From positions 28,798 to 92,797 of the forward strand of contig JBAYUN010000003.1 of NCBI GenBank assembly GCA_041675085.1: a DNA stretch of 64,000 nucleotides, read 5' to 3'. Source of the stretch: Minisyncoccota bacterium (GTDB taxonomy: Bacteria > Patescibacteriota > Minisyncoccia > Phycocordibacterales > UBA9973). How positions within the stretch are numbered: position 1 is the stretch's first letter; every line of letters begins with the position of its first letter. Below the pieces are notes generated by a model, which was not told where the DNA came from, searched no databases, and worked only from the letters and a program-made list of their open reading frames with translations. A program made the position numbers and the translations under genes. Positions 25,577 to 41,731 of this stretch are shown here, piece by piece.

Positions 25577-28500
25577 TGAAAAAAGATTTTTATATTAATC
25601 TAATAAAATTTTCTTCAACACTTTTTGTTTTTGTGTTTCTATTTTTGTTTACTACAAATGCAGCAGAAGCTGCTGTGAAGACATGGACTGGATCTACTAG
25701 TGATTTGTGGTCTGTGGGTGCGAACTGGGGAGGTGATGTTCCTGTCACGGGAGATGACTTGGTGTTTCCTGATGGAACATCAAATCTTTCTAGTACGAAC
25801 GATTTGACTGAAAATACAATTTTTAATTCAATTACTTTTTCTGGTAGTGGTTACACTCTTTCAGGAAACAGTATTATTTTAGGACCAGGGCTTGCAGGTA
25901 TTACTGACGTTACTTCTTCTGGAGGAAATACGATTGCATTTGATATTCGTTTAGATGTTACTCGTGATATTTATGTAACTAATATAAATGAGACTTTGAC
26001 TATCAGTGGTAGAATAGCTGGTGTCGGAGGTATTAATAAAGAAGGTGAGGGAAAATTAATTCTTTCTGGTGCGAATACTTATGGCGGTATTACAAAAGTA
26101 AATGTGGGAGTATTGAATGCACAGAACGATAAATCTCTCGGGACTATTTTGGCAGGAACAGAAGTTGTAGGTAATGCTGTTCTTGAGTTGCAAGGAGGAA
26201 TCAATATTAGTTATGAAGCTTTAGCTTTGCGTGGTTACGGGGTTTCAGAAAATGGAGCCTTAAGAAATATTAGTGGCAATAATACTTATGGTGGATTAAT
26301 TACACTGAGTTCGGCTGGAGGTACAGAAATATCATCGGATGCTGATACTCTCACAATCACAGGAGGTATGACTGGAGCGTTTCCATTATTCATTGATGGA
26401 CCAGGTAATATTACTTATTCTACTACTCCTATTGCTATTGCAGCCGGTACAGTTACAAAGAAAGGTTCTGGTACTTTGAGATATAATTTTCCTAATACTT
26501 ATACTGGTTTAACAATCATTGACGCAGGGACTCTTCTTTATGGGACAAATAATGCAATCCTTTCTGGAGGTGTTACTGTGACAGGAGGAACTTTAGATAT
26601 ATCTAATTATTCTGATATGTTAGGAACTGTAACTCTTGGAACTTTAGATTTAGCTAGTGGTACTATTACAGGTACTTCAGGAGTATTAAGTAGTCCTACT
26701 TGGACAGTTTATAATGGTAGCATTAATGCTATTATTTCTGGATATGGTGGAACTCTCACAAAGAGTACTCCAGGCACTGTAGTTTTAGGGAGAGCTAATA
26801 GGTATACTGGAGCTACTAGTATAAATGGAGGTATTTTAGAAATTCAAGATAGTTCATCTCTTGGAACAATTGATGGTATTACTACTGTTTCTGGTGGCTC
26901 AACATTGCAAATAAATGGAGATGGAATGTTAATACCAGAATATATTGCTTTTTCTGGTACTGGACATTTATATAAAGGTGCTATTCGCAACAAAAATGGA
27001 AACAATACTTTATCGGGTTTATTGACTACGGGTTCTGGGGCTATGATTGTGTCTGAGATAGATACAATTTTAACAATTGATGAGAGAGGCGTTTCAGTTA
27101 CAACAATAGGTTTGACTGTAGGGGGTGCGGGTGATGTTGTTTTTACCGACGATGCACCTATATATGGAACCACTGGTACTTTAACCAAAAATGATGAAGG
27201 TCTTTTAACTATAAATTCTTTTTCTAATATTACTGGTGTTATATCTATAAATAGAGGTGATGTTGTATTGAGTGGTTTAGGCGCTTTACCAATTGCTACG
27301 ACAATTTTTATAAATGCTGGAGCTACTTTGACGCTAGATAATACTTCAAATATAGTAAATGATCGTATCGCCGATACAGCTGTGGTTACGATGAATGGTG
27401 GTAATTTTAATTTTAAAGGCTCGAGTTCTGGTGATGTTCTTGAAACTACTGGAGTCTTAACATCAGGTATAGCTACTCAGTCAGGAGATAATAAAATAAC
27501 TATTACTCCAGGTTCTGGAGGGTCTACTGTTATGCGTTTTGCATCACTTATACGTACCGCTGGATCTTCATTACTTTTTAGAGGTACTTCTCTCGGCTCT
27601 ACTCCGGCGGCCAATGTATCGACTTTACTTTTCACAACTGCGCCTACTTTGTTGGGAGATGATGGAGAATCTAATTCACCAACACTCAGTATTATTCCTG
27701 GTGCTTTTGGCGACAATTCTCTAACTGGCACTGGTACAGATATGGTAACTTACAATAAAGGTAATATTAATGGATTACGTTTATTGAATGGGATAGGTTT
27801 TACTGGAGAATATACTAGTGATATTAATAGGACTAATGGAAATGTGAAACTCACTTCTTCTATCTCAGCTACTACTTCACTAATAAATTCTCTCATACTT
27901 AGCTCTGGATCAAGTATTACTAATCCAAGCACATCTCAAAATATTACTTTAACTTCTGGAAATATTTTAAATTTAGTGAATGGTGCTAACATTGCTGGAG
28001 CTAATACTACTTTGATTATGGATGGTAATGTTGAAGGATTCATTCGTGCAGTAGAGGATATTGATTTTTCTTCTTCTATTGCAACAACCGGAGGATTTAC
28101 AAAAACAGGTGAAGGAACACTAACTTTTTCTAGAGCTCAAACTTATACAGGTCTTACCTCGGTTAATGAAGGTACTTTTTTATATGGTATAGCTGATACT
28201 ATTTCTTCTGGTAACGTGACTGTTAATGGTGGAATTTTAGATATTGCAAACTTTAATGATACTGTAGGTGCAGTTATTTTACAAAAAGGAACTATTACTG
28301 GTAGCACTGGAGTATTGAGTGGAGCTTCATATAATCTCAGAGAAGGAACAGTGAGTGCTATTTTGGGAGGAGGGGTAACTCTCACACGTATTGCAACAAA
28401 TACCGCGGCTGATAGTATTGTGGCTTTGACTCGAGAGAATAGTTATACAGGAGTGACAACTATAACAAGCGGTATTTTGAAAATAGGTGCAGCTGGGAAC

Positions 28501-31500
28501 GGTACGAATTCTCCTCTTGGTACAATAGCTAGCGGTACGACTATCGCCAACATAGCCGCGCTTGACCTTAATGGTTATACTTTGTCGACTACAGAAGCTA
28601 TAACTTCTCTTAATGGATCAGGTTTTGGACCTAGTGCTACTGTTGCTAATGGTAATAGTGTTATGGGTGCTCTAATGAATAGCTCGGGAACTTCTGTTAG
28701 TTATAATGGAAATATTGCTCTTGGGTCTGCGTCGAGAATTAATGCGGATTTTGGAACAATTAATATTACTGGGAATATCTCCGGGGCTTTTGGTCTCACT
28801 ATCGGAGGGTATAGCAATACAACTTTAGCAGGGACTATTGGTGCTGGTGCTTTGTCTTTAACTAAAGATGGAATAGGTACACTTACACTATCAGGTTCAA
28901 ATTCTTATACTGGGGCAACAACTGTGAGTTCAGGTACAATTAAACTTGGTGCAACTGGTAGCGGTAGTAATACACCTCTTGGTACTACAGGAGGTACAAC
29001 AACTGTCGCTACTGGTTCACGTTTTGATCTTAATGGTTTTACTTTAGCTACAGCAGAAACTATTACTTTAAATGGTGTTGGTTATGGTATTGGTAATGGA
29101 GCTAGTGGGGCATTAATCAATAGTTCTGTTTCTTCTGTTACATATAGTGGGCAAATCTTGCTTGGTTCTACGGGTACAATGGTTAAAGCCGATTATGGTG
29201 ATATTAATCTAACTGCTGCAGGTACAATCACGGGTGCAAATTTTGGTTTAATTTTAGCGGGATCTGGTAATGGAACTTTGTCTAGTATTATTGGTACTAC
29301 CTCTGGAACAGTTACAAAAATTGGAAGTGGAATGTGGACCTTGTCGGGTTCTAGTACGTATACTGGAGCGACTAATATAAATATAGGTACTTTGAGGCTT
29401 GGGGCGACTGGGGGAGCGACAAATACACCACTTGGAACTATTGGGTCTGGGACTGTGGTCTCAAGTGGAGCGGTCTTGGATTTAAATGGTTATACTCTCG
29501 GCACAGTTGAAGGTCTAACTATTAACGGACGTGGTATTGGTAACGGAGGTGTGCTTATTAATAATTCTATTAGTAGCACAACTTATCCTGGCGGAATAAA
29601 TCAAGCTACAGATTCTCGTATTGCAAATTCAGGAGCTGGGCTTTTGACACTATCCGGTGCAGTCAGTGGGGCTTTTACTCTTCAGGTGGGTGGAGCGGGT
29701 AGTACTACATTTAGCACCGCTATTCCTACTACCTTTCTTATTTTAAGAAAACAAGGTGCGGGTACTCTAACTCTGACGGGTACGAATCTAAATATAGGAG
29801 GAGTAATAATAGATGAAGGAACATTAACTTATGGAGCGGCAACAACTTTAGCCGCCACTCCAATGACTGTTCTCGGTGGGACTTTTAATATGAATGGGAC
29901 TACAGATGCTATTGGTGCCGTTACTCTTATCGGAGGCAATATTTCTAATGGAACTCTAACATCTGCTACTAGCTATACTCTTGAAAGTGGTACAGTTAGT
30001 GCTATTTTAGCAGGAGCTGTGCCTGTCATAAAAAATACAAATAATACTGTTGTACTCTCTGGTGTAAATACTATAAGTAGTACCACTACTATCAACGCTG
30101 GTACTCTAACCATTAGCGGTAGTGGAAGCGCTACAGCGACTACTATCACAGTAAACTTGGGTGGGACTTTAACTTTGGATAATTCTTCTACAGCTGTAGC
30201 TAGTCGTTTAGGAGATGCAATAGCGCTCACTATGAACGGTGGTAATTATAATTTTATTGGTAATTCTGCAGGAGCATCCTCTGAAACAACAGGAGCCTTA
30301 ACTTTATTAACTGGGCATAATACCGTGACTGTTACTCCTGGTTCTGGTGGAAGTACTACAATGACTTTTGCAAGCTTGTCTCGCACTGCCGGAGCTACTG
30401 TTCTTTTCCGAGGAACTGGTCTAGGGACAGCTTCTGCTGCTAATATTTCTACTTTAGTTTTTACAGCAACACCTACTTTAACTGGTGGGGGTGGTGCATC
30501 TGGTTCTACGACTGTCAGTGTGATTAAAGGAGCATATGGAGACTCTTCTTTATCTGGTACAGGTAGTGATATGGTGACTTATCAAGGTGGAACTGGTTTA
30601 CGTTTATTAAACGGCGCAGGATTTTCTGGAGAATATGCGACTAATTTATCTACAGCAAATGCTAATGTAAAATTAACTGCTAGTGCAACAGCTACAACAA
30701 CAAATACGAACTCATTAATTTTAAATGGTTTTAGTGTTACTGATCCTGGAGTAGATACTACTTTACCAATTGCATCTGCTTCGCTTGCTGGAAATATTTT
30801 AATAAACTCGGCTAATGACATTGCTGGTTCAAATACAACTCTAGGTATTACAACTTTTGAATTACCTATTTTAGCAACATCTAATGGAGCGATCACTGCT
30901 AAGATAGGTACTGCTACCTCAGGGGTGCTTACTTTGAGTGGTTCTGGAAATGTCACCTTAAGTGCGGCTAATCTTTATAATGGGTTAACATACATTAATG
31001 GAGCTACTCTTACTTATGGTGTAAGTAATGCTATTTCTACTGGAGGTGTGGTTGTGCGTGGTGGTTTGTACGACTTGAATGGAAATTCAGATATTATAGG
31101 TTCTTTATCTCTTACTGCAGCTTCTGTTGCTACGGCATCTGGTACTCTTACTTTAGGTGGAGATCTTACAAGTATTGCTAATGGAAATTTTAGTTCAAAG
31201 ATAACTGGTAATCTGGATCTTGGGTTTAATAGAATTTTTAATATCGGTGACGGGCTTGTTGATAATGATCTTATTGTGTCGGCTATTGTTAGTGGTGCTT
31301 TTAATGTAACAAAAAGTACAGGTACTGGGGTTTTGGTATTCTCTGGAGATAATACTTACACTGGTTCCACTACTATCAGTGCTGGAACTTTAAGGCTTGG
31401 TGCAAATGGTGGTGTTACAAATACACCTCTTGGTACTACTTTAGGCAATACTATTGTTTCTGGTGCATCTTCAGCTCTTGATTTGAATGGTTTTACTTTA

Positions 31501-34500
31501 GGCACGGCTGAGCCTTTGACATTAACTGGAGCACTGGCTACTGGTGCTTTGCAAAATACCTCAAGTGATTCTGTGACTTACAGTGGTTTAATAACTCTTG
31601 GTGCAGCTAGTACTATAATATCTAATTATGGTGATATTAATATTAGTAATGGCGGTAACATAACAGGGAATACTTTTGGTCTTACTATTGGAGGTGCAGG
31701 TAATGGAACTCTGTTTAGCAATTTAAATACTGGAACTGGCACTTTAACTAAAAATGGTTTAGGCGTTTGGACTATATCAGGTGGGGCTAGTACATACACA
31801 GGACTTACTACAATTAGTGCGGGTACTTTGAAACTTGGTTCTGCTGGTAGCGGAGTGAACACTCCACTTGGCACTGTCGCTGGTGGAGTTACTGTTACCA
31901 GTGGAGCAATATTTGATTTAAATGGTTTTACTTTAGCTACAGCAGAACCCATTGGATCTTTAAACGGAACAGGTATTGCAAACATCGGTGCACTTATTAA
32001 TAGCTCCAGTAATACAATATCATTCACTGGGACAATTACTTTAGGTGCTGCTTCTCGTGTCGTTAATTATGGTAACGGAGTTTTGACTTTAGCTGGTAAT
32101 ATAGGTGGTAACTTTGCTTTAACTTTAGTGACTGTAGGTGGTATTACGCAATCTTCTAACAGTATACGTTCTGGTACTAGTACAATAATCAAAGAAGGTT
32201 CTGGTACATTAATCTTGACTGGTCAAAATACTTTTACTGGTGCTGTAACTGTAAGTACAGGTGTATTGCAACTTGGAGCCAGTGGTGGGGCTACGAATAC
32301 ACCCTTGGGTACTAGTGCTGGAGGTGTAGTGGTTTCTACTGGTGCAGTTTTGGATCTTAGTACTTATTCTTTAGGTGGAGCTTCTACTTATGAAACTTTA
32401 AACCTAAGTGGTACTGGTATTGGTAATGGTGGTGTATTAATTAGTACAGCTAGTGGAAATAATAATTTTGGTGCAGTGACAGTGGCGGCGAGCTCTCTCG
32501 TTGTTAATAATGGTAGTGGTACTATAACTTTTGGTGGAACTATTACAATTGCTAATAGTATAAACTTAAGTATTGGCGGTACAGGACCGACAACAATCTC
32601 TGGAGCTTATGGAGCAACAGCAACATCTGCAACTTTAACAAAATGGGATTCTGGAACATTGTCTATGGGTAGTGTAGCAAGTATTACTACTGGCTTAGTG
32701 CGTATTAATGGTGGAACTATAAAATATGGAATAAATGATTCATTCGCCACTCCTTTTTTAACAATAGCTGGTGGAACCTTAGACTTAAATGGATTTAATG
32801 AAACTAATATTGGAGCTGTTACTTTAATTGATGGATCTATTGTAAATACTGGTGGTGCATCAACTCTTACATCTACTACTACTTATACAGTAGAGAATGG
32901 AACAATTAGTGCTGTTTTAGCTGGTGCAGCCATAGCTTTTAATAAAAATACTGGCGGTACAGTTAGTCTATCTGCCGCTAATACTTTCGCAGGATTAACA
33001 AGTATTAACGCAGGAACTCTTGCTTGGGGAATTAATGATGCATTGTCTAGTGGAGCTCTTACTGTGACGGGAGGTATTGCTGATTTAGGAACTCATACTG
33101 ATACTGTTGGTACTGCTACTTTAACCTCTGGAAGTATAAAAAGTAGTACAGGTATTTTAACCGCAACTTCTTATGCTGTAGCGAGCGGTAGTATTGGTGC
33201 TATTCTTGCTGGCGCAGTGAATTTAACTAAAACTACAGTAGGCTTAGTTACTCTGTCTGGAAATAATACTTATACTGGTATTACTACTATTAGTGGTGGA
33301 ACCTTAAGTGTATCAAATATTGGTAATGGAGGAGTAGTAGGGAATTTAGGTCAAGCTACGAATGCTGCTGCTAATATTGTATTTAATACTGGTACAGGTA
33401 CATTACAATACACAGGTTCTACGGCTTCTACTGATAGATCTTATACTACAACTACTGCTATAACTACAAACTTTGATATCACTAATCCTGGTACTGTGTT
33501 AACTTGGTCTGGTGCTGGTACTGTTACCACAGCTATTGTCACAAAAATAGGCCAAGGTACTTTAAAATTTTCAGCTTCACAAGGTCATACTGGTGCAACA
33601 AATATACTTGCAGGAACTTTACAATATGGAGTAGCTAATATGCTTTCTACTGGTACTGTAAATATAAGTAATGGTATTCTTGATATCAATAATTTCTCTG
33701 ATAGTGTGGGTGTTATTACTTTGCAAAATGCTGGTTCTATTATTGATTCTGGTGGAACCACAGCAGTTTTAACCACCACAGGAACCGGAGCTTTCCAAAG
33801 TGGATTTATTAGTGCTAGACTCGGAGGGTCAATATCTACAGCAATCACTAAATCTACTAATGGTAGAGTTGTATTGTCAGGTGATAATACTTTTACTGGT
33901 ACTATAATTTCTTTGTTCACTGGTTATTTATCTCTTCTTCATAATAATGCATTAGGCGCTTCAGGCACTTCTCTCGGTCTAATTGTAACATCTGGCGCAG
34001 TCTTGGAATTAAATGGTGATATTATGATACCGAGTACTAAAGCTTTTACTATTAATGGTTCTGGTGTAAATAACTTGGGTGCAATTAGAAATGTCAGTGG
34101 TGCAAATACTATAATGGCTTTTGGTAATTTTGCTTTAGGTTCTAATAGTCGCATTAATTCGGATAGTGGTAGTTTAACTATCCCTACTATTTCTGGTAAT
34201 AGTAGGAGTCTAACATTCGGTGGGGCTGGAGATATAACTGTCACTGGTGCTATCAGTACAACCAGTGGTACTCTAACTAAAGAAGGTTCTGGTGTTTTGA
34301 CTCTTACTGGAACGAATACGTACTATGGAACAACTACTCTAACTTTGGGGACTATTATAGCCAACTCTACTTCATCTCTAGGAGATGGTAGTGCTACTAA
34401 TACTTTAATATTTAATGGTGGAACTTTAAAAGCTTCAGGGACTATAACTTCCCCTGTTGATCGAACTGTGACTCTTGCTGGTAACGCTACTATTGATACT

Positions 34501-35208
34501 AATGGTAATAATGTTAGTATCGCGGGAACTGTTGGTTCAGCTGGAGGTCTGACTAAAAATGGTGCCGGGACCCTAACTCTCACCGGAGTAACTACTATCG
34601 GTAATGGTCTCACTATAGATGACGGAACTTTTGTGGCTCCGACCAGTTTAACTATTACTGGAGATCTGACCAATAGTGGTACTTTCACTCATAGTAATGG
34701 TACAGTGGTTTTAAACCCTAATGCAATAAATAGTACTGCTAATGTATTTGGTAGTTCTAATACTATTTTTTATAATTTTACTTATGCTACAGCTAACTCG
34801 AATCTAAAATTTAAAGCCGGCAATACTTATACTTTCACAAATCTTTTAACCTTAACCGGAACTCTAGGTAGTCCTATTTCATTAAGTTCAGACACCAATG
34901 GAGTTCAGTGGCTCATGGTCCTTTCTGGTTCTAGTAGTGTTGCTTATATAAATGTACGAGACTCTGGATGTAGTAGTGGTAATACTGTCCCTGTTGATTA
35001 TCCTTCTATTTCTAACTCTGGAAATAATGGGTGGTGCTGGTCATTTATAAGTCTCAGTGGTGGTTCTGTGAGTAATGTAGAAGTTTCTGTAACCCCAGAT
35101 CCAGATCAAACAGGAGGAGATGAGGGTGGAGGTGTGGGAATTGAAGATGAGGGAACGGGAGATGTGGAAGGTGGAGGTGGTTCTGGTGGAGGTGGCGGTT
35201 TAGAATAG
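25576..35208 (+). CDS. giant surface protein (3210 aa) built from autotransporter-associated beta-strand (PATR-like) repeats
   Basis: Signal peptide. There are dozens of degenerate repeats of the form TKxGxGTLTLSGxNTYTGxTTIxxGTLxLG, for example TKIGSGMWTLSGSSTYTGATNINIGTLRLGATGG. The C-terminus is Gly-rich (GGGGSGGGGGLE). Confidence 0.65.
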   Translation: MKKDFYINLIKFSSTLFVFVFLFLFTTNAAEAAVKTWTGSTSDLWSVGANWGGDVPVTGDDLVFPDGTSNLSSTNDLTENTIFNSITFSGSGYTLSGNSIILGPGLAGITDVTSSGGNTIAFDIRLDVTRDIYVTNINETLTISGRIAGVGGINKEGEGKLILSGANTYGGITKVNVGVLNAQNDKSLGTILAGTEVVGNAVLELQGGINISYEALALRGYGVSENGALRNISGNNTYGGLITLSSAGGTEISSDADTLTITGGMTGAFPLFIDGPGNITYSTTPIAIAAGTVTKKGSGTLRYNFPNTYTGLTIIDAGTLLYGTNNAILSGGVTVTGGTLDISNYSDMLGTVTLGTLDLASGTITGTSGVLSSPTWTVYNGSINAIISGYGGTLTKSTPGTVVLGRANRYTGATSINGGILEIQDSSSLGTIDGITTVSGGSTLQINGDGMLIPEYIAFSGTGHLYKGAIRNKNGNNTLSGLLTTGSGAMIVSEIDTILTIDERGVSVTTIGLTVGGAGDVVFTDDAPIYGTTGTLTKNDEGLLTINSFSNITGVISINRGDVVLSGLGALPIATTIFINAGATLTLDNTSNIVNDRIADTAVVTMNGGNFNFKGSSSGDVLETTGVLTSGIATQSGDNKITITPGSGGSTVMRFASLIRTAGSSLLFRGTSLGSTPAANVSTLLFTTAPTLLGDDGESNSPTLSIIPGAFGDNSLTGTGTDMVTYNKGNINGLRLLNGIGFTGEYTSDINRTNGNVKLTSSISATTSLINSLILSSGSSITNPSTSQNITLTSGNILNLVNGANIAGANTTLIMDGNVEGFIRAVEDIDFSSSIATTGGFTKTGEGTLTFSRAQTYTGLTSVNEGTFLYGIADTISSGNVTVNGGILDIANFNDTVGAVILQKGTITGSTGVLSGASYNLREGTVSAILGGGVTLTRIATNTAADSIVALTRENSYTGVTTITSGILKIGAAGNGTNSPLGTIASGTTIANIAALDLNGYTLSTTEAITSLNGSGFGPSATVANGNSVMGALMNSSGTSVSYNGNIALGSASRINADFGTINITGNISGAFGLTIGGYSNTTLAGTIGAGALSLTKDGIGTLTLSGSNSYTGATTVSSGTIKLGATGSGSNTPLGTTGGTTTVATGSRFDLNGFTLATAETITLNGVGYGIGNGASGALINSSVSSVTYSGQILLGSTGTMVKADYGDINLTAAGTITGANFGLILAGSGNGTLSSIIGTTSGTVTKIGSGMWTLSGSSTYTGATNINIGTLRLGATGGATNTPLGTIGSGTVVSSGAVLDLNGYTLGTVEGLTINGRGIGNGGVLINNSISSTTYPGGINQATDSRIANSGAGLLTLSGAVSGAFTLQVGGAGSTTFSTAIPTTFLILRKQGAGTLTLTGTNLNIGGVIIDEGTLTYGAATTLAATPMTVLGGTFNMNGTTDAIGAVTLIGGNISNGTLTSATSYTLESGTVSAILAGAVPVIKNTNNTVVLSGVNTISSTTTINAGTLTISGSGSATATTITVNLGGTLTLDNSSTAVASRLGDAIALTMNGGNYNFIGNSAGASSETTGALTLLTGHNTVTVTPGSGGSTTMTFASLSRTAGATVLFRGTGLGTASAANISTLVFTATPTLTGGGGASGSTTVSVIKGAYGDSSLSGTGSDMVTYQGGTGLRLLNGAGFSGEYATNLSTANANVKLTASATATTTNTNSLILNGFSVTDPGVDTTLPIASASLAGNILINSANDIAGSNTTLGITTFELPILATSNGAITAKIGTATSGVLTLSGSGNVTLSAANLYNGLTYINGATLTYGVSNAISTGGVVVRGGLYDLNGNSDIIGSLSLTAASVATASGTLTLGGDLTSIANGNFSSKITGNLDLGFNRIFNIGDGLVDNDLIVSAIVSGAFNVTKSTGTGVLVFSGDNTYTGSTTISAGTLRLGANGGVTNTPLGTTLGNTIVSGASSALDLNGFTLGTAEPLTLTGALATGALQNTSSDSVTYSGLITLGAASTIISNYGDINISNGGNITGNTFGLTIGGAGNGTLFSNLNTGTGTLTKNGLGVWTISGGASTYTGLTTISAGTLKLGSAGSGVNTPLGTVAGGVTVTSGAIFDLNGFTLATAEPIGSLNGTGIANIGALINSSSNTISFTGTITLGAASRVVNYGNGVLTLAGNIGGNFALTLVTVGGITQSSNSIRSGTSTIIKEGSGTLILTGQNTFTGAVTVSTGVLQLGASGGATNTPLGTSAGGVVVSTGAVLDLSTYSLGGASTYETLNLSGTGIGNGGVLISTASGNNNFGAVTVAASSLVVNNGSGTITFGGTITIANSINLSIGGTGPTTISGAYGATATSATLTKWDSGTLSMGSVASITTGLVRINGGTIKYGINDSFATPFLTIAGGTLDLNGFNETNIGAVTLIDGSIVNTGGASTLTSTTTYTVENGTISAVLAGAAIAFNKNTGGTVSLSAANTFAGLTSINAGTLAWGINDALSSGALTVTGGIADLGTHTDTVGTATLTSGSIKSSTGILTATSYAVASGSIGAILAGAVNLTKTTVGLVTLSGNNTYTGITTISGGTLSVSNIGNGGVVGNLGQATNAAANIVFNTGTGTLQYTGSTASTDRSYTTTTAITTNFDITNPGTVLTWSGAGTVTTAIVTKIGQGTLKFSASQGHTGATNILAGTLQYGVANMLSTGTVNISNGILDINNFSDSVGVITLQNAGSIIDSGGTTAVLTTTGTGAFQSGFISARLGGSISTAITKSTNGRVVLSGDNTFTGTIISLFTGYLSLLHNNALGASGTSLGLIVTSGAVLELNGDIMIPSTKAFTINGSGVNNLGAIRNVSGANTIMAFGNFALGSNSRINSDSGSLTIPTISGNSRSLTFGGAGDITVTGAISTTSGTLTKEGSGVLTLTGTNTYYGTTTLTLGTIIANSTSSLGDGSATNTLIFNGGTLKASGTITSPVDRTVTLAGNATIDTNGNNVSIAGTVGSAGGLTKNGAGTLTLTGVTTIGNGLTIDDGTFVAPTSLTITGDLTNSGTFTHSNGTVVLNPNAINSTANVFGSSNTIFYNFTYATANSNLKFKAGNTYTFTNLLTLTGTLGSPISLSSDTNGVQWLMVLSGSSSVAYINVRDSGCSSGNTVPVDYPSISNSGNNGWCWSFISLSGGSVSNVEVSVTPDPDQTGGDEGGGVGIEDEGTGDVEGGGGSGGGGGLE

Positions 35209-35246: not shown

Positions 35247-35636
35247 ATGAAAAATTTTTTACAGAAACATGCCTTATACTTTTTGGTTTTTACTGTTTCA
35301 GTTATTTTTGTATTAATTTTTATTTTAGTAAAATTTGTTTTTTTTCAAAAATCAGAAGTAAAAACTGAGAGTGATATATTGATAGATAAAGTAGGAGAGA
35401 TAGTGTATTTGCCAATAGGTGAGACGCCTTCTGTCGCTACCGTGACCGATCCTTCCAAATTAAAAAACCAAAACTTTTTTGAAAACGCAAAAACAGGAGA
35501 TAAGGTTTTGATTTATCCCAAATCAGGTAAAGCAGTGTTATATGATCCTGAAGTACATAAAATCGTAAATATTTCTTCAATTTTATTGAATGCATCTTTG
35601 GAAAACGAATCAAATATTAATCAACAAGAATTTTAA
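35247..35636 (+). CDS. hypothetical N-terminally anchored protein
   Basis: 129 aa with a single N-terminal TM. It is the first gene of the surface locus. Confidence 0.3.
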   Translation: MKNFLQKHALYFLVFTVSVIFVLIFILVKFVFFQKSEVKTESDILIDKVGEIVYLPIGETPSVATVTDPSKLKNQNFFENAKTGDKVLIYPKSGKAVLYDPEVHKIVNISSILLNASLENESNINQQEF

Positions 35637-35637
35637 A

Positions 35638-36633
35638 ATGATTAAAAAGAATTTTGTTACAAAAATCTTTATATTGTCTTTTCTCTTATTGTTGTCTTTT
35701 TTTAATGCTTTTGCTGAAGATCTGACTAGTACTAATTTCATAGTTCGTGATCCTATTATTGGTACAGGTGGTTCTTATGGAACCTCTACGAATTTTAAGC
35801 TTTATGGTTCTGGGAATGCCAATATTTCAGGCCAAGGATCTTCTACTAATTTTATTGGACGTAGTGGATTTTTATATTTTCCATTTGTTGATGTTGGTGT
35901 TTTGACCGCTCTACAGAACGGAGTTGATGTTGATTTATCGTGGACTGTTTCTACTGCTGGTTTAGGTTTTAACGTGTCTGGATACAAGGTTGGATTCTCT
36001 GGTGTGCCAGGTGGACCGTATAGTTATACTACACTCGGTTTAGTAACTACTTATACTTATGAAGATATAACTCCCGGAGAGTACTGTTATGTTGTTGAGA
36101 CTTTAGATAGTTTTGGGAATACTATCGGTAAAACCAATGAAGATTGTATTACTGTAGATCCAGTCATATCGTTTTCTATTTCTGATAATAGTTTAAATTT
36201 TGGTAATTTATCTATTTCTGGTCCGAGATATGCTAATACATCTACTGGTAGTGCTACAAGTACTGTCGCTCATACAATATCTGCAGGATCTAATGCTAAT
36301 TCGGGTTATGTTATTACATATAATGGGTCTACTCTAACAAGTGGGTCTAGTAATATAGATGTTGCTTCATCTGTGTCAGGGGACGGAACTCCTGGTGTTG
36401 AACAATTCGGCATCTCTCTTAGTACTAATGGTTCTGCTATTATCCCAATACCTTATAGGCAAACAGGTCCAACTCGGACATATGTCGCAAATACTACGAC
36501 TGAGATAGCTTCGACTAGTGGAGTTACTTCTTCTGAGACTTTTAGTTTGTATTATTTAGCTAATATTTCAAGTATTACAGAAGCAGGTGAGTATCAAGCT
36601 AATATTACTTACGTGGCGACCGGTGAATTCTAG
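35638..36633 (+). CDS. secreted surface protein, paralog A (Fn3-like domain plus WxL/TasA-like C-terminal beta domain)
   Basis: Start at MIKKNF with a Sec signal ending in a predicted AFA cleavage site. Three S(T)NF motifs. An Fn3-like segment reads DVDLSWTVS..GYKVGFSG..YSYTTL. The C-terminal domain runs ISFSISDNSLNFGNLSISG ... TEAGEYQANITYVATGEF and is paralogous to that of 36718..37770. Confidence 0.45.
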   Translation: MIKKNFVTKIFILSFLLLLSFFNAFAEDLTSTNFIVRDPIIGTGGSYGTSTNFKLYGSGNANISGQGSSTNFIGRSGFLYFPFVDVGVLTALQNGVDVDLSWTVSTAGLGFNVSGYKVGFSGVPGGPYSYTTLGLVTTYTYEDITPGEYCYVVETLDSFGNTIGKTNEDCITVDPVISFSISDNSLNFGNLSISGPRYANTSTGSATSTVAHTISAGSNANSGYVITYNGSTLTSGSSNIDVASSVSGDGTPGVEQFGISLSTNGSAIIPIPYRQTGPTRTYVANTTTEIASTSGVTSSETFSLYYLANISSITEAGEYQANITYVATGEF

Positions 36634-36717
36634 TTATCCACATACTATCAAACTTATTTTTTTTGTATTAAAATGTTATAATATATGTATTATTTATTAG
36701 TTAGTTAATTTAAAATT

Positions 36718-37770
36718 ATGTTTAGAAAAATCACGAGTTTTGTTTTGATGTTTATGTTAGTTTTAGTTTCTTCTTACTCATCTGTTTCGTCTTATGCATA
36801 TGCAGCTTCTTTGTCTGCTATGTCTGCTACTTTAAGTACAGAAAAAGCTTCGACTGCTTCCAATTACACCATACAGTTTACAACTCCTACTGGTGTAGCA
36901 TCAGGGCAAACTATTATTTTAACTTTTGATAACTCTACGAGTGTTCATGCTTCTTTGGACTTTACAGATATTGATCTAAAAGACGACGGAGTAGACGTAA
37001 CACTAGCTGCTGCTCCAGCAGCTGCAACTTGGGGAGTAGTACGTACTTCTGGTACAGTTATTACTTTCACTAACGGTACTACAGCAGTAGGTGCTGGTAG
37101 TGTTATAAATATAGAGATTGGTACTCATGCTACTACAGGTGCGACTGGTGACCAACAAATCACAAACGGTTCTGCGGGAACAACATTGCTTACCATGTCT
37201 GGTACATTTACTGATACTGGCGTTATAGGTATTCCAGTAATAGCTGATGATGTTGTGGTTGTGAATGCTCGTGTTCAACCTTCTATTTCATTTACTGTTT
37301 CTGATAATACTATCTTTTTTGGTAATCTACGTACAGCTGGAGCTTGTTTTGCACAAGGTACAGATCCTGGAGCAGTAACTTGTCCTACCACTACTGAAAC
37401 AGAAGCTTTCAATCTTACAGCTGGAACAAATGCTACCTCCGGTTATGTTATAACTGTACAAGGAGCAACTTTGACTTCGGGCGCAGATACTATTGATCCT
37501 TTGGCTGTGAATACTGCTTCAAGTCCTGCTTCAGAACAATTCGGTATGCGTATTACTGCATCAGGTGGTTCTGGTGCTGTGACTGCTCCGTATGCAGCTG
37601 CTGGTTATGCTTGGACAGCGTCAGCTTCTACTCCAGCTCAAATAGCTTCAGCTGGAGACCCTTCAGCTACTACTACATATTCTGTTCGCCAATTGGCTAA
37701 CATTTCAGCTGTAACAGAAGCTGGTACATATACTTCAACTCAAACTTACGTTGCTACTGCTACCTATTAA
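36718..37770 (+). CDS. secreted surface protein, paralog B
   Basis: Sec signal ending in a predicted AYA cleavage site. The C-terminal domain runs SFTVSDNTIFFGNLRTAG ... NATSGYVITVQGATLTSG ... TEAGTYTSTQTYVATATY and aligns with paralog A. Confidence 0.45.
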   Translation: MFRKITSFVLMFMLVLVSSYSSVSSYAYAASLSAMSATLSTEKASTASNYTIQFTTPTGVASGQTIILTFDNSTSVHASLDFTDIDLKDDGVDVTLAAAPAAATWGVVRTSGTVITFTNGTTAVGAGSVINIEIGTHATTGATGDQQITNGSAGTTLLTMSGTFTDTGVIGIPVIADDVVVVNARVQPSISFTVSDNTIFFGNLRTAGACFAQGTDPGAVTCPTTTETEAFNLTAGTNATSGYVITVQGATLTSGADTIDPLAVNTASSPASEQFGMRITASGGSGAVTAPYAAAGYAWTASASTPAQIASAGDPSATTTYSVRQLANISAVTEAGTYTSTQTYVATATY

Positions 37771-37801
37771 TTTAATTTAAAGTGTGTTAATCTGAATAAT
37801 T

Positions 37802-38812
37802 ATGAATAGCCTAAAAATAGTTAAAACTTGTATCTTATTAATTGCTTTTTTTGGGCTTTTTGTGACTTTTTCTCATACAGCACACGCATTGACTATATCT
37901 CCACCAAGGTTAGAACTTTCAGGTGATCCTGGAGATTTAATTAAAGAGAACTTAACTTTAACAAATGAGAAAAATGTAACTCAGAAATTTTTCTTATCTT
38001 TTGAGAATTTTGAAGCTCAAGGTGAGAGTGGTACACCTTCTTTTGTTGAACCCAAAAGTGGCTTAGGGACTTGGATGTCTGCGGAGCCTTCCGTGTCTTT
38101 GTTGCCAGGGGAGAGTAAGATTATTCCATTTACTATTAAAATACCAGAAAATGCTGAAGCGGGTGGTCATTTTGCTTCTGTCTTTTGGGGTACAAGTCCT
38201 TCTGGGTCTGGTGGTGGTCAGGTTTCAATTGGTGCAAAGGTTGGAACTTTGATTTTACTTTCTGTCTCAGGAGATATCAAAGAAGAAGCTGGTTTATTGT
38301 CATTTAATACTTTAAATAATAAATTTTTCTACAAAACCCTACCTGTTTCTTTTGAATATCGATTTAAAAATGATGGTAATGATCGCATCAAGCCAGTAGG
38401 TAATGCTTTAATTAGAAACACTTTATTTATTCCTACAGAAAAAATTGACGCCAATATATCTCTAGGTAACGTTCTCCCTGGTAGCACTAGAAAGTATGAT
38501 TTCAAATGGTTGGAATATGAACGAGATGCTAATGATGTAAATAGAGAAGGTTATTTTGGTAATTTTATTGATAATATTAGCTATCAGTGGAAGAATTTTG
38601 CAGTCGGTTTGTATTCTGCAAATCTAAAATTAGCTTATGGTATAAACAGTCAGGAGGTATCTAAGACAGTTTTATTTTTTGTATTTCCTTGGGAGCTTGT
38701 TTTGGTTATGCTTTTTTCTTTATTTATCATTTATTTCTTTGGCGGGAAAATTATTCGTAAGTACAATAGATATATTATAGAAAAAGCTAGAAATGGTATG
38801 AAAATATCATAG
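37802..38812 (+). CDS. DUF916/DUF3324-like cell-surface protein with C-terminal TM anchor
   Basis: Signal peptide. LTISPPRLELSGDPGDLIKENLTLTNEKNVTQKFFLSF resembles the DUF916 N-terminal Ig-like block. A C-terminal TM (LVLVMLFSLFIIYFF) is followed by a basic tail. Overall architecture matches enterococcal/lactobacillal WxL-interacting proteins. Confidence 0.35.
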   Translation: MNSLKIVKTCILLIAFFGLFVTFSHTAHALTISPPRLELSGDPGDLIKENLTLTNEKNVTQKFFLSFENFEAQGESGTPSFVEPKSGLGTWMSAEPSVSLLPGESKIIPFTIKIPENAEAGGHFASVFWGTSPSGSGGGQVSIGAKVGTLILLSVSGDIKEEAGLLSFNTLNNKFFYKTLPVSFEYRFKNDGNDRIKPVGNALIRNTLFIPTEKIDANISLGNVLPGSTRKYDFKWLEYERDANDVNREGYFGNFIDNISYQWKNFAVGLYSANLKLAYGINSQEVSKTVLFFVFPWELVLVMLFSLFIIYFFGGKIIRKYNRYIIEKARNGMKIS

Positions 38813-38820
38813 TATTAACT

Positions 38821-39732
38821 ATGGTTAATTATTTTTTTAAAAAAATCATATTAGCTTTACTAATAATTTTATCCTTATTTCCATTTTATGTTATTAGAGC
38901 AGTAGACATTATAGATTCAGATGATGTTGTTGTTAGTGCAAGAGTCATAGACACTAGTATAGTCATTCCTCCAACCCCTACATCTCTGGGTGGTGGCGGG
39001 GCGGTGAATCTTTTTATTCCAAAGATAGGTGTCGCCTTAAGAGGGGAAGCGTATCCAAATGCAAAGATAACATTACTGAAAGGTGGTATTTTTGTTCTTT
39101 CAGTGAATGCTGATAATCGTGGATTTTTTAATATGTCAATTGAAGAAAAGTATGAGAATACAGCTCTCTATACAATTTTTGCCGAAGACTCTGATGGAAA
39201 TAAATCTTTGCTGCTAAATTATCCAGTAGCAGTTTATTCTGGGTATATTACCGAGCTTAGTAATATACGCTTTGCTCCGACCATATCTTTAGATAAATCC
39301 GAAGTTTTAGAAGGTGACTATATTACTATATATGGTTATGCTATGCCTGATAGATCTTTATATGTATCTTTAGATGGCTTAAATCAGAAAAATTTTCTTA
39401 CCAATTCTTTATCAGATGGATCATATAAAATAACCATACCAATGACAGATTTATCAAAAGGTAGTTATAGTTTGAATATTAAATATTTAAATGATACTCG
39501 TATTAGTAAGTTAGTAAAATTTATAATTGGAGATTCTAATAAAAATGTCGAAAATTATCCTCTTGTAATACAAGGTGATTGTAATAAAGATAATTTGATA
39601 AATCTTATAGATTTTTCGGTGATGGCTTTTTGGTACAAGAAAGATAATCCACCTTCATGCGTAGATGTGAATAGTGACAATGTTGTAAACTTAATAGACT
39701 TTTCTATATTAGCTTATTTCTGGACCAATTAA
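38821..39732 (+). CDS. secreted dockerin-domain protein
   Basis: Signal peptide. The C-terminus carries duplicated Ca-binding dockerin loops: GDCNKDNLINLIDFSVMAFWY and VDVNSDNVVNLIDFSILAYFW. Both place D/N/D/N/D at loop positions 1,3,5,9,12. Confidence 0.6.
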   Translation: MVNYFFKKIILALLIILSLFPFYVIRAVDIIDSDDVVVSARVIDTSIVIPPTPTSLGGGGAVNLFIPKIGVALRGEAYPNAKITLLKGGIFVLSVNADNRGFFNMSIEEKYENTALYTIFAEDSDGNKSLLLNYPVAVYSGYITELSNIRFAPTISLDKSEVLEGDYITIYGYAMPDRSLYVSLDGLNQKNFLTNSLSDGSYKITIPMTDLSKGSYSLNIKYLNDTRISKLVKFIIGDSNKNVENYPLVIQGDCNKDNLINLIDFSVMAFWYKKDNPPSCVDVNSDNVVNLIDFSILAYFWTN

Positions 39733-39735
39733 TTT

Positions 39736-40614
39736 ATGAAAAAAAATATTTTTTTAATAATTTGTGCTTTATTTTTTATCCCTCGTGTTCTTTTTGCTTC
39801 TAGTATATATCTTACTGGAGAACAAAATACTAACATCGGAGAATCTTTTAAAGTACTTGTTTCTATTGATTCAGAAAATAATGCTATTAATTCTATTGAT
39901 GCTATTGTGGGTTTTGATTCTAATTTAATTGATTATATTGGTTTTCAAGATAATGAAACTTTATTTAAAAATTGGATCCAAGCCCCGTCTGTATTTGAAA
40001 GTAATAAAATTCAAATGACTGGTATTGTGCCTGGGGGGGTTAGTGGTATTTATAATCCAAATCAAAAAAAACTCGATGATATTCGTGTAGTCTATCTTGT
40101 TTTCAAGTCTAAAAAAACAGGTGTGGCGAATTTTGTTTTTCATAAAAAAGATGTCTTGCAAAATGATGGTTTAGGTAGTCCTCTTTCTGTAGATAGCAAA
40201 AATTTCTCTGTAAATATAAAAGACAATAATTCTCCTACATTTAATTATGACGCATTCGAAGCTCAAAAAAATACAGAAGATACATTGCCACCTTTACCTT
40301 TTATAATTACATTTATACCTGCCCTAAAAGCCTCAGAGACAAATACTATGATTTCTTTTATAGCCGAAGATATTGAGTCTGGTATTAAAGAATATCGCAT
40401 CAAAAAAGGTGGATCTTATGAAGTTGTGACTAGTCCATTAATCGTAAATAAAAGTTTGTTTTCTAAAAAGATAACCATCAGAGCTTATGATTTTAATGAT
40501 AATTTTACTGAATCTCATATTCAGATAGACGGTATTGTGACTTTTTGGCATATAATAATTCTTTTGATTGGATTGTTTTCTTCTAGTCTTTTCGTGCGTA
40601 AATTGCTAAAATAG
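39736..40614 (+). CDS. membrane-anchored cohesin-like domain protein 1
   Basis: Signal peptide. SFKVLVSIDSENNAINSIDAIVGFDSNLIDYIGFQDN ... VVYLVFKSKKTGVANFVF ... NDGLGSPL fits the cohesin beta-sandwich pattern. C-terminal TM FWHIIILLIGLFSSSLFV. Confidence 0.45.
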   Translation: MKKNIFLIICALFFIPRVLFASSIYLTGEQNTNIGESFKVLVSIDSENNAINSIDAIVGFDSNLIDYIGFQDNETLFKNWIQAPSVFESNKIQMTGIVPGGVSGIYNPNQKKLDDIRVVYLVFKSKKTGVANFVFHKKDVLQNDGLGSPLSVDSKNFSVNIKDNNSPTFNYDAFEAQKNTEDTLPPLPFIITFIPALKASETNTMISFIAEDIESGIKEYRIKKGGSYEVVTSPLIVNKSLFSKKITIRAYDFNDNFTESHIQIDGIVTFWHIIILLIGLFSSSLFVRKLLK

Positions 40615-40618
40615 AATT

Positions 40619-41731
40619 ATGTATTTTAGGAATTTTTTAATAATATTCATTTTATTTTTTGGGCTTTTCTTTTCTTTAAACATGGACGCCCTAGCTTCCT
40701 CTTCACTCTATTTTAGTAAACCCCCTATTGTGTCTGAAGGAGACAGACTGACTATCTTTTTAAGAGTAAATTCTACAGATCAATCCATAAATGCTGTCTC
40801 TGGTGTAGTTTCTTTTCCAGAGAATTTATTGCGAGCTGTGTCTGCCTCTAAAGAGTCTAGTATTATTAATCTCTGGACTGGTGAGCCTAAAATAACTAGG
40901 GGTCAAATATCTTTTGAGGGAGTTATTCTTAACCCTGGTTTTTCTGGTAATAATGGACTAGTTTTAAAAATTGTCTTTGAAGCAAAGACTAAAGGAGTCG
41001 CCAATTTAAATTTTACTGAAGGCTCGATTTTGGCTAATGACGGATTGGGTAGTAACGTTTTAGCAGATTTGTCAGGTACGAGTATTAGGATCAATAGTTT
41101 TGTAAAACCGACTGATACTCGTCCTATAAAAGTTGTAGCGGAAGAAAAGACAGAAATAAAGACAGAAAATAAACTTGCAAAATTACCAGTGATAGTAGAA
41201 GCCTCTTCGTCCATAGCCTCAAAAGAAAAGATATACATATCAGGTAAAGGTGAGCCCAACAGTCTTACCAAAATCGTATTCAAAGACGTATCATTGAGGT
41301 CTCTTGGTGAAGAACTTTTGACTCGACTTCAATTCAAGAAAACTAAATTAGATTCTATCTTAGTTAAAAATGATGAATTGGGTAATTTCCAGTACACTAG
41401 TACTTCAAATTTAATAGCAGGAGTTTATAATGCTACCCCTTTTCTTGTCGATGAAAATGAGAGTATCGAGAAACCAGGTCTAGGTACTCAGATTTTAGTT
41501 AGTGATAGTAAAATTGTAAAAAATCTAATTGTATTTATTAACGTACTAGGTCTGTTTATACCGATAGTTATACTCTGTGTTATAATTTACTTTATACCTT
41601 GGTATTCATGGCTTCGAATGAGAATCCTAAAAAAGAAATTAGGGTTAGAAGAAGAGAAGATAGAACTTACTGGTATCAATTTAGCACGTCAAGATAATTT
41701 ACTTAATCAAAATATTAATGAAAAAAAATAA
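40619..41731 (+). CDS. membrane-anchored cohesin-like domain protein 2
   Basis: Signal peptide. DRLTIFLRVNSTDQSINAVSGVVSFPENLL ... LVLKIVFEAKTKGVANLNF ... NDGLGSNV is a paralog of the preceding cohesin-like domain. C-terminal TM LIVFINVLGLFIPIVILCVIIYF. Confidence 0.45.
   Translation: MYFRNFLIIFILFFGLFFSLNMDALASSSLYFSKPPIVSEGDRLTIFLRVNSTDQSINAVSGVVSFPENLLRAVSASKESSIINLWTGEPKITRGQISFEGVILNPGFSGNNGLVLKIVFEAKTKGVANLNFTEGSILANDGLGSNVLADLSGTSIRINSFVKPTDTRPIKVVAEEKTEIKTENKLAKLPVIVEASSSIASKEKIYISGKGEPNSLTKIVFKDVSLRSLGEELLTRLQFKKTKLDSILVKNDELGNFQYTSTSNLIAGVYNATPFLVDENESIEKPGLGTQILVSDSKIVKNLIVFINVLGLFIPIVILCVIIYFIPWYSWLRMRILKKKLGLEEEKIELTGINLARQDNLLNQNINEKK

Follow-up and report, generated by a model that had tools for sequence, protein, structure and literature searches.

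A probable Pam-type surface-fibre operon with a WxLIP-homologous helper in a Candidatus Paceibacterota genome

Pam pili are fibres of the candidate phyla radiation (CPR) that are built by donor-strand exchange, and they were described in a 2026 preprint by cryo-electron microscopy (cryo-EM) of thin filaments of the Saccharimonadia parasite Candidatus Mycosynbacter amalyticus (10.64898/2026.03.03.709456). Here we compare with them a triad of genes (A, B and C) located in a 64-kb stretch of DNA (the window) from a Candidatus Paceibacterota metagenome-assembled genome (MAG), in which A and B encode secreted proteins sharing a C-terminal domain (CTD) and C (locus tag WC011_02570) encodes a protein ending in a transmembrane (TM) helix. 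The Paceibacteria, or Parcubacteria, are the largest CPR class and, to our knowledge, are barely represented in culture and, type IV pili aside, are not known to possess any apparatus for host attachment. The triad is probably the core of a Pam-type donor-strand-exchange surface-fibre operon in a streamlined Paceibacteria variant, with C as a single membrane-anchored chaperone/anchor homologous to the WxL-interacting protein (WxLIP); B would form the shaft, and A would occupy a variable adhesin position. The locus would thus represent a recently described system in a Paceibacteria form; the homology between a Pam-type helper and WxLIP is the new element of this analysis.

The subunits PamA and PamB consist of a nine-strand beta-sandwich N-terminal domain, a linker strand and a truncated immunoglobulin (Ig)-like CTD, and the linker fills the CTD of the neighbouring subunit (10.64898/2026.03.03.709456). 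The pam operon also encodes PamC and PamD, PapD/FimC-like chaperones with an unusual C-terminal TM helix, PamE, the tip pilin PamT, which is composed of the CTD only, and PamR, an RbmA-like anchor or terminator with a C-terminal TM helix (10.64898/2026.03.03.709456). The preprint stresses Saccharimonadia and Microgenomatia and gives ATP synthase, CorB and MFS as neighbours of pam (10.64898/2026.03.03.709456). Its text mentions neither WxL nor DUF916, Paceibacteria/Parcubacteria or cohesin/dockerin. The second system to be considered is the WxL/Csc clusters of Bacillota, each comprising a short WxL protein, a long WxL protein, a WxLIP (DUF916-DUF3324-TM) and a small LPXTG protein, and requiring, by definition, one or more WxLIPs together with two or more WxL-domain proteins (Hassan et al. 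2023, PMC10599100). A hairpin loop of WxLIP is predicted to order into a strand that fills the gap of the WxL sandwich (Hassan et al. 2023, PMC10599100).

The initial annotation placed three open reading frames (ORFs) on the plus strand at the positions listed for A, B and C in Table 1, and all three were found there. It had taken A and B for paralogues with a common C-terminal domain, and the paralogy is indeed limited to their C-terminal parts (residues 173–331 of A and 186–350 of B, 43% identity over 166 aa, E = 9e-31 by BLASTP), with no mutual alignment of the N-terminal domains. The motif strings named for the domain are present as well, ISFSISDNSLNFGNL and ISFTVSDNTIFFGNL at its start and TEAGEYQANITYVATGEF and TEAGTYTSTQTYVATATY at its end. 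Both proteins exceed the curated cutoff (55 bits) of the NCBIfam model NF058581 (CPR_Pam_pilin_C, "Pam pilus system pilin subunit"), A with 76.2 bits (aa 185–331) and B with 84.8 bits, and the same model is matched by 8 of 27 A-type homologues (best E 2.4e-31). Pfam gave no match in A or B, and a hidden Markov model (HMM) of the CTD, run over the window, matched these two proteins and no others. By sequence, then, the shared domain belongs to the Pam pilin CTD family.

Related loci were taken from 80 species-level genomes gathered with a narrow profile of C (A1), nearly all of them from Patescibacteria (Paceibacteria, Nomurabacteria, Parcubacteria, Minisyncoccia and one Gracilibacteria). All 163 CTD proteins in these genomes stop exactly at the domain boundary, with Phe (142 proteins) or Tyr (21 proteins) as the last residue, and the alternating-hydrophobic pattern of the linker is conserved across them. 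The AlphaFold2 (AF2) model of B (mean predicted local distance difference test score, pLDDT, 85.2) has strands at residues 33–175, 181–186 and 189–349, i.e. two beta domains, the N-terminal one being a confident beta-sandwich, joined by a linker strand in which V180, A184 and V186 are invariant. The inter-domain linker is the donated strand in Pam pilins (10.64898/2026.03.03.709456), and the conserved linker strand observed here is best explained in the same way, with aa 178–187 of B as the candidate donor. A paired cysteine has also been reported for Pam pilins (10.64898/2026.03.03.709456); A and B contain one Cys pair each (C150/C170 and C210/C222, respectively), that of B being conserved.

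The Sec signal peptides of A, B and C were judged by eye. The label "Fn3", which the initial annotation gave to A and B, held in part, since A-type homologues match Y_Y_Y (9/27) and fn3 (1/27), whereas the N-terminal domain of B matched no Fn3 model. In the PDB sequence search, the N-terminal domain of A matched a designed Fn3 protein non-significantly (E = 0.32), and single-sequence PDB searches with A, B or C gave nothing useful. Homologues of B numbered 890, and the chaperone-proximal CTD protein in related loci, which occupies the position of B, is always 229–420 aa long; B is probably the major shaft subunit. Because variable or giant proteins hold the position of A in other genomes, A is read as probably a variable, distal or adhesin-type subunit. 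The STNF repeat motifs of A start at aa 31, 50 and 69, and this region is the most conserved segment in the alignment of A-type homologues, with I35, D38, P39, T43, G45, S50, G77, F78 and L79 invariant. Pfam and NCBIfam searches of the A-type homologues yielded no family match for the repeat, which might serve as a cap or as an extension resembling an N-terminal donor strand.

For C, the initial annotation had proposed the architecture of a DUF916/DUF3324 protein. The N-terminus of C reads ...AHA/LTISPPRLELSGD...NLTLTNEKNVTQKF, and the claimed signal peptide and hydrophobic C-terminal helix with a basic tail are both evident. Its AF2 model (pLDDT 83.7) consists of a signal-peptide helix, two beta-sandwiches (approximately aa 30–157 and 158–296) and a TM helix (aa 297–330), with a disordered loop at aa 136–144 (pLDDT <50). 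Directly past the signal peptide there is a highly conserved strand (A29-LTxSP34), and P296 and W297 are nearly invariant in the C family, which comprises 9221 cluster representatives (50% identity) at E ≤1e-3 and 986 at E ≤1e-30. The B model has the two-domain layout seen by cryo-EM for PamA and PamB, and the two sandwiches and TM helix of C are in line with the PapD/FimC-like, TM-bearing chaperones of the pam operon; both features speak for the Pam-type reading.

Foldseek comparison of C with the PDB gave 473 matches at E ≤1e-3, the top one being Enterococcus faecium WxLIP (9i1y_A, E 4e-11, TM-score 0.40/0.48), the second RbmA (E 1.3e-10, TM-score 0.23–0.37, root-mean-square deviation ~16 Å) and the fourth WxLIP bound to a long WxL protein (9i25_C). 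Chaperone-usher chaperones CfaA and CsuC were matched at E 1e-9 to 1e-8 with TM-scores of ~0.5; the TM-scores of C to WxLIP, CfaA and CsuC range from 0.35 to 0.56, and the alignments to WxLIP extend over 264–303 columns. When a profile of 133 C-family members (A3, representatives at 50% identity) was compared with the whole PDB, the best sequence matches were two EfmWxLIP1 chains (E 0.006–0.008), aligned over profile positions 32–143, the entire first domain; the narrow profile A1 had no match in the PDB, and only the diverse A3 reached WxLIP. PF06030 (DUF916/WxLIP_PGBD) is matched by 92 of the 133 members (best E 2.9e-7), and for some of the CPR proteins in the family the automatic annotation already reads "DUF916 domain-containing protein". 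C itself scores 12.7 bits on this model, against a gathering cutoff of 27.3, so that the match expected by the initial annotation exists at the level of the family and not for C alone.

A homologue search with the EfmWxLIP1 fragment gave fragments only, and the WxL and WxLIP families were therefore taken from plasmid loci, the WxLIP set consisting of 11 proteins from plasmid records of Bacillus, Niallia, Listeria, Lactococcus, Enterococcus and Companilactobacillus. Two HHalign runs of the C family against these proteins gave probabilities of 97.3% (E 1.9e-11) and 97.7% (E 2.2e-12), the latter with 210 columns over both domains. Domain 1 of C compared with domain 1 (DUF916) of WxLIP gave 97.3% (E 1.6e-11), whereas cross-controls (domain 1 with DUF3324, and either domain with WxL or the pilin CTD) did not exceed 0.5%. 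Domain 2 alone gave 0.4%, yet it is collinear within the 210-column alignment and in the Foldseek alignments to 9i1y and 9i25; PF11797 (DUF3324), also suggested in the initial annotation, was matched neither by C nor by any C-family member. Because of the A3 matches, the PF06030 counts, the HHalign results and the domain-level controls, the likeness to WxLIP is more than that of a generic Ig fold and, the existing annotations being added, the DUF916 call was correct. C is a homologue of Firmicute WxLIP (DUF916/DUF3324), a remote one rather than a Pfam-level member, given its score below the cutoff.

The presence of chaperone-usher chaperones among the top Foldseek matches fits a membrane-anchored chaperone of the PamC/D type, a likeness by architecture and fold, and C may be considered a putative chaperone/anchor of this kind. 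No Pfam match to Usher or PapD (PF00345/PF02753) was found in any cassette protein or in the 133 C-family members. The low-confidence loop of C and the conserved strand that follows (aa 131–150, ...GGGQVSIGAKVGTL) align with the hairpin region of WxLIP. Insertion of a strand in the way predicted for this hairpin is the geometry of donor-strand complementation by PapD-type chaperones. From the alignment with the inserting region of WxLIP we infer for C a role at the membrane in complementing the open CTDs of both subunits, which is the role assigned to PamC and PamD (10.64898/2026.03.03.709456).

The initial annotation had further proposed that the shared domain of A and B is of the WxL type, with W replaced by Y. 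The parallel in motif spacing is real at the consensus level, the distance from FG to G[WY] being 40 residues for WxL against 41 for the CPR domain, and that from G[WY] to Y..tLT[WY] being 90 against 96; Tyr takes the place of both Trp in A and B, and both Trp-x-Leu motifs are absent. For comparison, the WxL family was rebuilt from 33 non-redundant domains of one E. faecium locus and 12 plasmid loci. PF13731 (WxL) was matched by neither A nor B, nor by any of 41 B-type or 27 A-type members, iterative HMMs of the CTD and WxL did not recruit each other in either direction, and their unfiltered scores equalled those of reversed-sequence controls. HHalign paired the final strand only (TYTSTQTYVAT with TFTADLTWNLV; P = 0.079, probability 0.7%), its local score of 16.0 lying above all 30 column-shuffled nulls (9.6±1.6, maximum 14.9). 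A second run gave 7.6% over an irrelevant N-terminal segment, and local and global HHalign comparisons with shuffled and reversed nulls and alternative alignments were all non-significant. Foldseek of the B model returned no WxL chain within the top 50, although 9i25 was in the searched set. Having failed by Pfam, iterative HMM, HHalign and the Foldseek top 50, the assignment of this domain to WxL is not supported; no WxL domain is demonstrable, and the domain instead passes the Pam pilin cutoff, a pilin family explaining the locus being what the initial annotation itself had named as evidence against its proposal. Homology of the CTD and WxL domains is unproven, with motif order and spacing, the strict C-terminal position and the cluster logic as suggestive features.

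Five proteins with a WxL end by HMM (85–97 bits; L006:1734-4007, L014:2735-5413, L017:2761-5409, L012:3352-5727 and L007:20-2392) are unannotated "long WxL" proteins of Firmicutes, which are labelled merely "legume lectin domain", "pectate lyase-like adhesive domain", "immunoglobulin-like domain" or "hypothetical". The plasmid CP069367.1, labelled Klebsiella pneumoniae, carries at 102720-103195, split in two, a gene that shares 91% identity with the short WxL gene of E. faecium; this record is probably mislabelled or contaminated.

Co-conservation of the genes, for which the initial annotation called, is strong across the 80 genomes. The conserved cassette consists of a small TM protein, two CTD proteins, C, a dockerin protein and two TM-anchored cohesin proteins. 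In 70 of 75 loci the C homologue is directly preceded by a CTD gene, and 57 of 62 loci contain at least two CTD genes (exactly two in 50/62). Among these 57 loci, 17 have a first CTD protein of more than 500 aa (maximum 2582 aa), and these large first-position proteins mirror the "long WxL" proteins. Relatives of the giant PATR adhesin of the window occur upstream of the cassette in several CPR loci, and a homologue of the 129-aa TM protein (U129) is found upstream in at least 33 of the 61 loci with room for it (phmmer). U129 has no significant family match in Pfam or NCBIfam; it occupies the position of the small LPXTG protein of WxL clusters and lacks LPXTG itself, and no sortase or LPXTG was found in the cassette by the ORF list, Pfam and NCBIfam. 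Downstream, as the initial annotation had stated for the window, a cohesin/dockerin module adjoins the triad, with dockerin in D1 and cohesin in D2 and D3, and it is co-conserved in most of the genomes: a Big_6 and dockerin protein directly follows the C homologue in 63 of 76 loci, and two or more TM-anchored proteins of the D2/D3 type are located downstream in 65 of 70. The D2/D3 family matches PF00963 (Cohesin) in 13 of 40 members (best E 1e-10), and its best PDB sequence matches are cellulosomal scaffoldins. D1 to D3 are likely to be part of the same apparatus as the triad.

Examples of large first CTD genes are L089:937-8685, L047:2218-8829, L062:2306-8854 and the first CTD ORF of L051, where a contig-truncated ORF fuses a PATR adhesin with a CTD. 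Three contigs of MAGs titled Bacteroidia or Gammaproteobacteria (L018, L049 and L093) carry the CPR cassette, with gene C identities of 43–72%, and are probably binning errors; many titles of the form "uncultured Candidatus Saccharibacteria" resemble generic CPR labels.

Compared with Pam, the locus shares the CTD above the curated cutoff in Sec-exported two-domain subunits, a paired cysteine per subunit, a two-Ig-domain helper with a C-terminal TM helix, two different CTD subunits side by side, a CPR host and the lack of an usher or trans-envelope machine. It differs in belonging to a Paceibacteria genome, in having one helper gene instead of PamC, PamD and PamR, no PamT equivalog and no recognised PamE, in a first subunit position that is often a giant adhesin fusion, and in its conserved neighbours: in place of ATP synthase, CorB and MFS, the cassette is accompanied by one dockerin and two TM-anchored cohesin proteins, by a small TM protein and by a PATR adhesin. 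C is likened to PamC/D by fold and architecture.

With the WxL/Csc clusters, the locus has in common a homologous helper whose alignment spans both Ig domains, which has the same signal peptide, two Ig domains and TM segment and is similar in length (336 aa for C and 337–365 aa for WxLIPs); one such helper is accompanied by typically two proteins with a strictly C-terminal beta domain of ~160 aa, of which one is short and the other, in many cases, very large and equipped with adhesive modules at the N-terminus. The gene order is the same, i.e. large adhesin ending in WxL, small LPXTG protein, two or three short WxL proteins and WxLIP in Firmicute loci, and giant adhesin, small TM protein, two CTD proteins and C in the CPR cassette. 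The motif G.Y..tLT[W/Y] and its spacing are similar, and the prediction for either system is that the helper contributes a strand to an incomplete sandwich. On the other side, the CTD fails all WxL tests and is without both Trp-x-Leu motifs, C remains under the PF06030 gathering score with PF11797 never matched, LPXTG protein and sortase are missing, the host is a CPR organism and not a member of Bacillota, and WxL proteins are regarded as monomers bound to peptidoglycan rather than as subunits of a fibre. Because the shared domain is not WxL, the cluster definition of Hassan et al. fails here as written; the layout, one C and two CTD proteins, is analogous.

Similarity to chaperone-usher systems (PapD/FimC, CfaA, CsuC) is structural only and concerns the boomerang-type fold of the two-Ig-domain helper, and, as proposed here, an incomplete Ig-like subunit domain that would be completed by a donated strand. 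The subunit C-terminus in the CPR cassette is strictly free and aromatic, recalling the anchoring of the C-terminal carboxylate of subunits by PapD-type chaperones. Unlike those systems, the cassette has no usher, no outer membrane and no PapD_N/PapD_C Pfam matches, the helper is membrane-anchored and not soluble, the donor strand would be an internal linker and not an N-terminal extension, and the subunits have an extra N-terminal domain.

In the Pam-type operon that we regard as the probable explanation, A and B would be Sec-exported two-domain subunits, each with a variable N-terminal beta-sandwich, a linker beta-strand and a Pam CTD with an aromatic last residue, and C would be held in the membrane by its C-terminal helix with the two Ig-like domains exposed. 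A strand of domain 1 of C (the flexible aa 131–150) would temporarily complete the incomplete beta-sandwich of a fresh subunit, and the linker strand of the next subunit would then displace it, producing a linear fibre that grows outward from the membrane. B would form the conserved shaft, the A position would provide a variable, often giant adhesive module at the distal end, and C, possibly with the cohesin/dockerin proteins, would hold the base of the fibre. Several observations weigh against this view. The PamT equivalog NF058579 (cutoff 240 bits) was matched only partially (59.8 bits by A and 44 by B), and no PamE or PamR was recognised in the operon, which thus differs from that of M. amalyticus; the C family matches no NCBIfam Pam chaperone model; the window genes that were scanned did not show the ATP-synthase linkage reported for pam; no filaments have been seen in any Paceibacteria, and it is from domain-family membership that polymerisation is deduced. 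In addition, the match of C to RbmA, the fold of PamR, has a good E-value and a low TM-score, so that C could be an anchor or terminator instead of, or besides, a chaperone.

The chief rival, which follows the initial annotation, is a WxL/Csc-type display complex without polymerisation, in which monomeric A and B would each be held by C through strand insertion and would present adhesive N-terminal modules. It retains part of its basis: C is a WxLIP homologue, the cluster composition and gene order are alike, and the C-terminal strand motif and inter-motif spacing are similar. However, the shared domain matches the Pam pilin model and shows no significant profile or HMM similarity to WxL, WxL chains are missing from the top 50 structural matches of B, the linker strand is best explained as donated, and there is no LPXTG partner; we consider pure display unlikely. 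The two models are compatible in part, since strand exchange might also operate in WxL clusters. It is less likely still that C serves solely as the membrane anchor or terminator of a fibre, as PamR does, with the subunits assembling by themselves or with another factor. Such a function would agree with the second rank of RbmA in Foldseek, with the TM helix common to C and PamR, with the conserved N-terminal strand of C and with the single gene found here in place of PamC, PamD and PamR, but the TM-scores of RbmA are below those of WxLIP, CfaA and CsuC, RbmA-like_FnIII is not among the 25 Pfam families most matched by C-family members, and the loop aligned with the inserting hairpin of WxLIP argues for a complementing function. 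Ig folds give many low-specificity matches in Foldseek, as with the 473 obtained for C and the integrins and MSCRAMMs obtained for B, and the resemblances could in principle be those of generic beta-sandwiches in unrelated secreted proteins, or in a TasA/camelysin-, SCPU- or sortase-type pilus. This explanation is highly improbable and already largely refuted by the NF058581 scores of A and B, by the domain-specific HHalign signal with its low controls, by the PF06030 matches of the C family and by the tight synteny in 80 genomes. The TasA/camelysin and SCPU alternatives raised in the initial annotation found no support in Pfam searches of the A- and B-type families or in Foldseek of B, and with LPXTG and sortase lacking in the cassette, these and the sortase-pilus reading were dropped for want of any match.

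Of the csc/WxL-type complex as initially proposed, what stands is the WxLIP homologue and the WxL-like cluster logic, the shared domain being that of a Pam pilin and not a detectable WxL domain. The statement that such a complex had not been described in CPR organisms is outdated, since Pam pili were described in 2026 and CPR members of the C family already carry the DUF916 annotation. The results would place Pam-type fibres in Paceibacteria/Parcubacteria as a highly conserved cassette, in which the first subunit position appears as a swappable adhesin slot of up to 2.6 thousand residues, suggesting how these epibionts vary their host specificity. The homology of C with WxLIP connects a pilus resolved by cryo-EM with the WxL/Csc clusters of enterococci, listeriae and lactobacilli, which were previously treated separately and whose mechanism has been obscure ever since they were defined in 2006, and it leads to the idea that WxLIP is a donor-strand-complementing chaperone or anchor. 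If the homology extends to the subunits, CPR Pam pili and Firmicute WxL clusters would constitute one family of monoderm strand-complementation systems. We put forward this wider interpretation tentatively, and with more doubt than confidence: the two would be branches of one ancient machinery with homologous helper and subunit domains, and WxL proteins would be assembled, possibly polymerised, by donor-strand complementation or exchange, not simply stuck to peptidoglycan. The helper homology is that of C described above; the subunit homology is hinted at by the identical cluster logic, the strictly C-terminal domain of ~160 aa, the shared order and closely similar spacing of three motifs, and the HHalign score of the last strand.

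The triad is part of a tight same-strand gene string with intergenic gaps of -14 to 84 nt, which comprises, in order, a class-A beta-lactamase-like gene, the PATR adhesin, U129, A, B, C and three more genes for secreted or anchored proteins (Table 1). Promoter and terminator scans gave background levels only.

Table 1. Features of the gene string around the triad (positions in the window)
Feature	Positions	Strand	Description	Evidence or remark
Giant adhesin	25576..35208	+	Secreted beta-helix adhesin, 3210 aa, 15-16 PATR/autotransporter-type repeats; head of same-strand string	PF12951 PATR E 6e-49; TIGR02601 E 4e-88
U129	35247..35636	+	Small protein with N-terminal TM segment; 1-nt gap before A	ORF list
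Subunit A	35638..36633	+	331 aa; signal peptide, triple STNF repeat, Ig/Fn3-like N-terminal domain, linker, Pam pilin CTD
(S/T)STNF triple repeat of A	35716..35886	+	aa 27-83, ~19 aa each, directly past signal peptide
Pam pilin CTD of A	36154..36630	+	aa 173-331; last residue Phe	NF058581; A/B BLASTP
Subunit B	36718..37770	+	350 aa; signal peptide, beta-sandwich N-terminal domain, linker strand, Pam pilin CTD
Linker strand of B	37249..37278	+	aa 178-187, DVVVVNARVQ	Candidate donor strand
Pam pilin CTD of B	37279..37767	+	aa 188-350; last residue Tyr
C	37802..38812	+	336 aa; signal peptide, two Ig-like domains, C-terminal TM helix	WxLIP (DUF916) homologue
C domain 1	37889..38272	+	aa 30-157	Homologous to DUF916/WxLIP PGBD
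C flexible loop and next strand	38192..38251	+	aa 131-150, TSPSGSGGGQVSIGAKVGTL	Candidate complementing strand
C domain 2	38273..38689	+	aa 158-296; second Ig-like domain	Positional equivalent of DUF3324
C TM helix	38669..38746	+	aa ~290-315, then basic cytoplasmic tail
D1	38821..39732	+	Secreted Big_6 and dockerin protein	PF17936 28.8 bits (cutoff 27.6); Dockerin_1 E 0.0014
D2	39736..40614	+	Cohesin-domain protein with C-terminal TM anchor
D3	40619..41731	+	Cohesin-domain protein with C-terminal TM anchor	Paralogue of D2

The class-A beta-lactamase-family gene (24524..25576; PF13354, E 6e-33) shares 1 nt with the beginning of the gene for the giant adhesin, and beta-lactamase homologues also precede the cassette in at least three further loci (L029, L033 and L035). 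Two more candidates for surface proteins are located near the cassette, a 2104-aa ORF (17586..23900) with zero Pfam or NCBIfam matches and, just upstream of it, a 471-aa secreted protein with LTD and PKD domains (15731..17146). Elsewhere in the window, two copies of metK (S-adenosylmethionine synthetase), at 47561..48496 and 55377..56312, bracket an island containing a D12-class adenine methyltransferase, a DUF6996/DUF6997 protein, an N6_N4 methyltransferase and unannotated ORFs, which looks like an inserted restriction-modification or defence island bearing a second metK.

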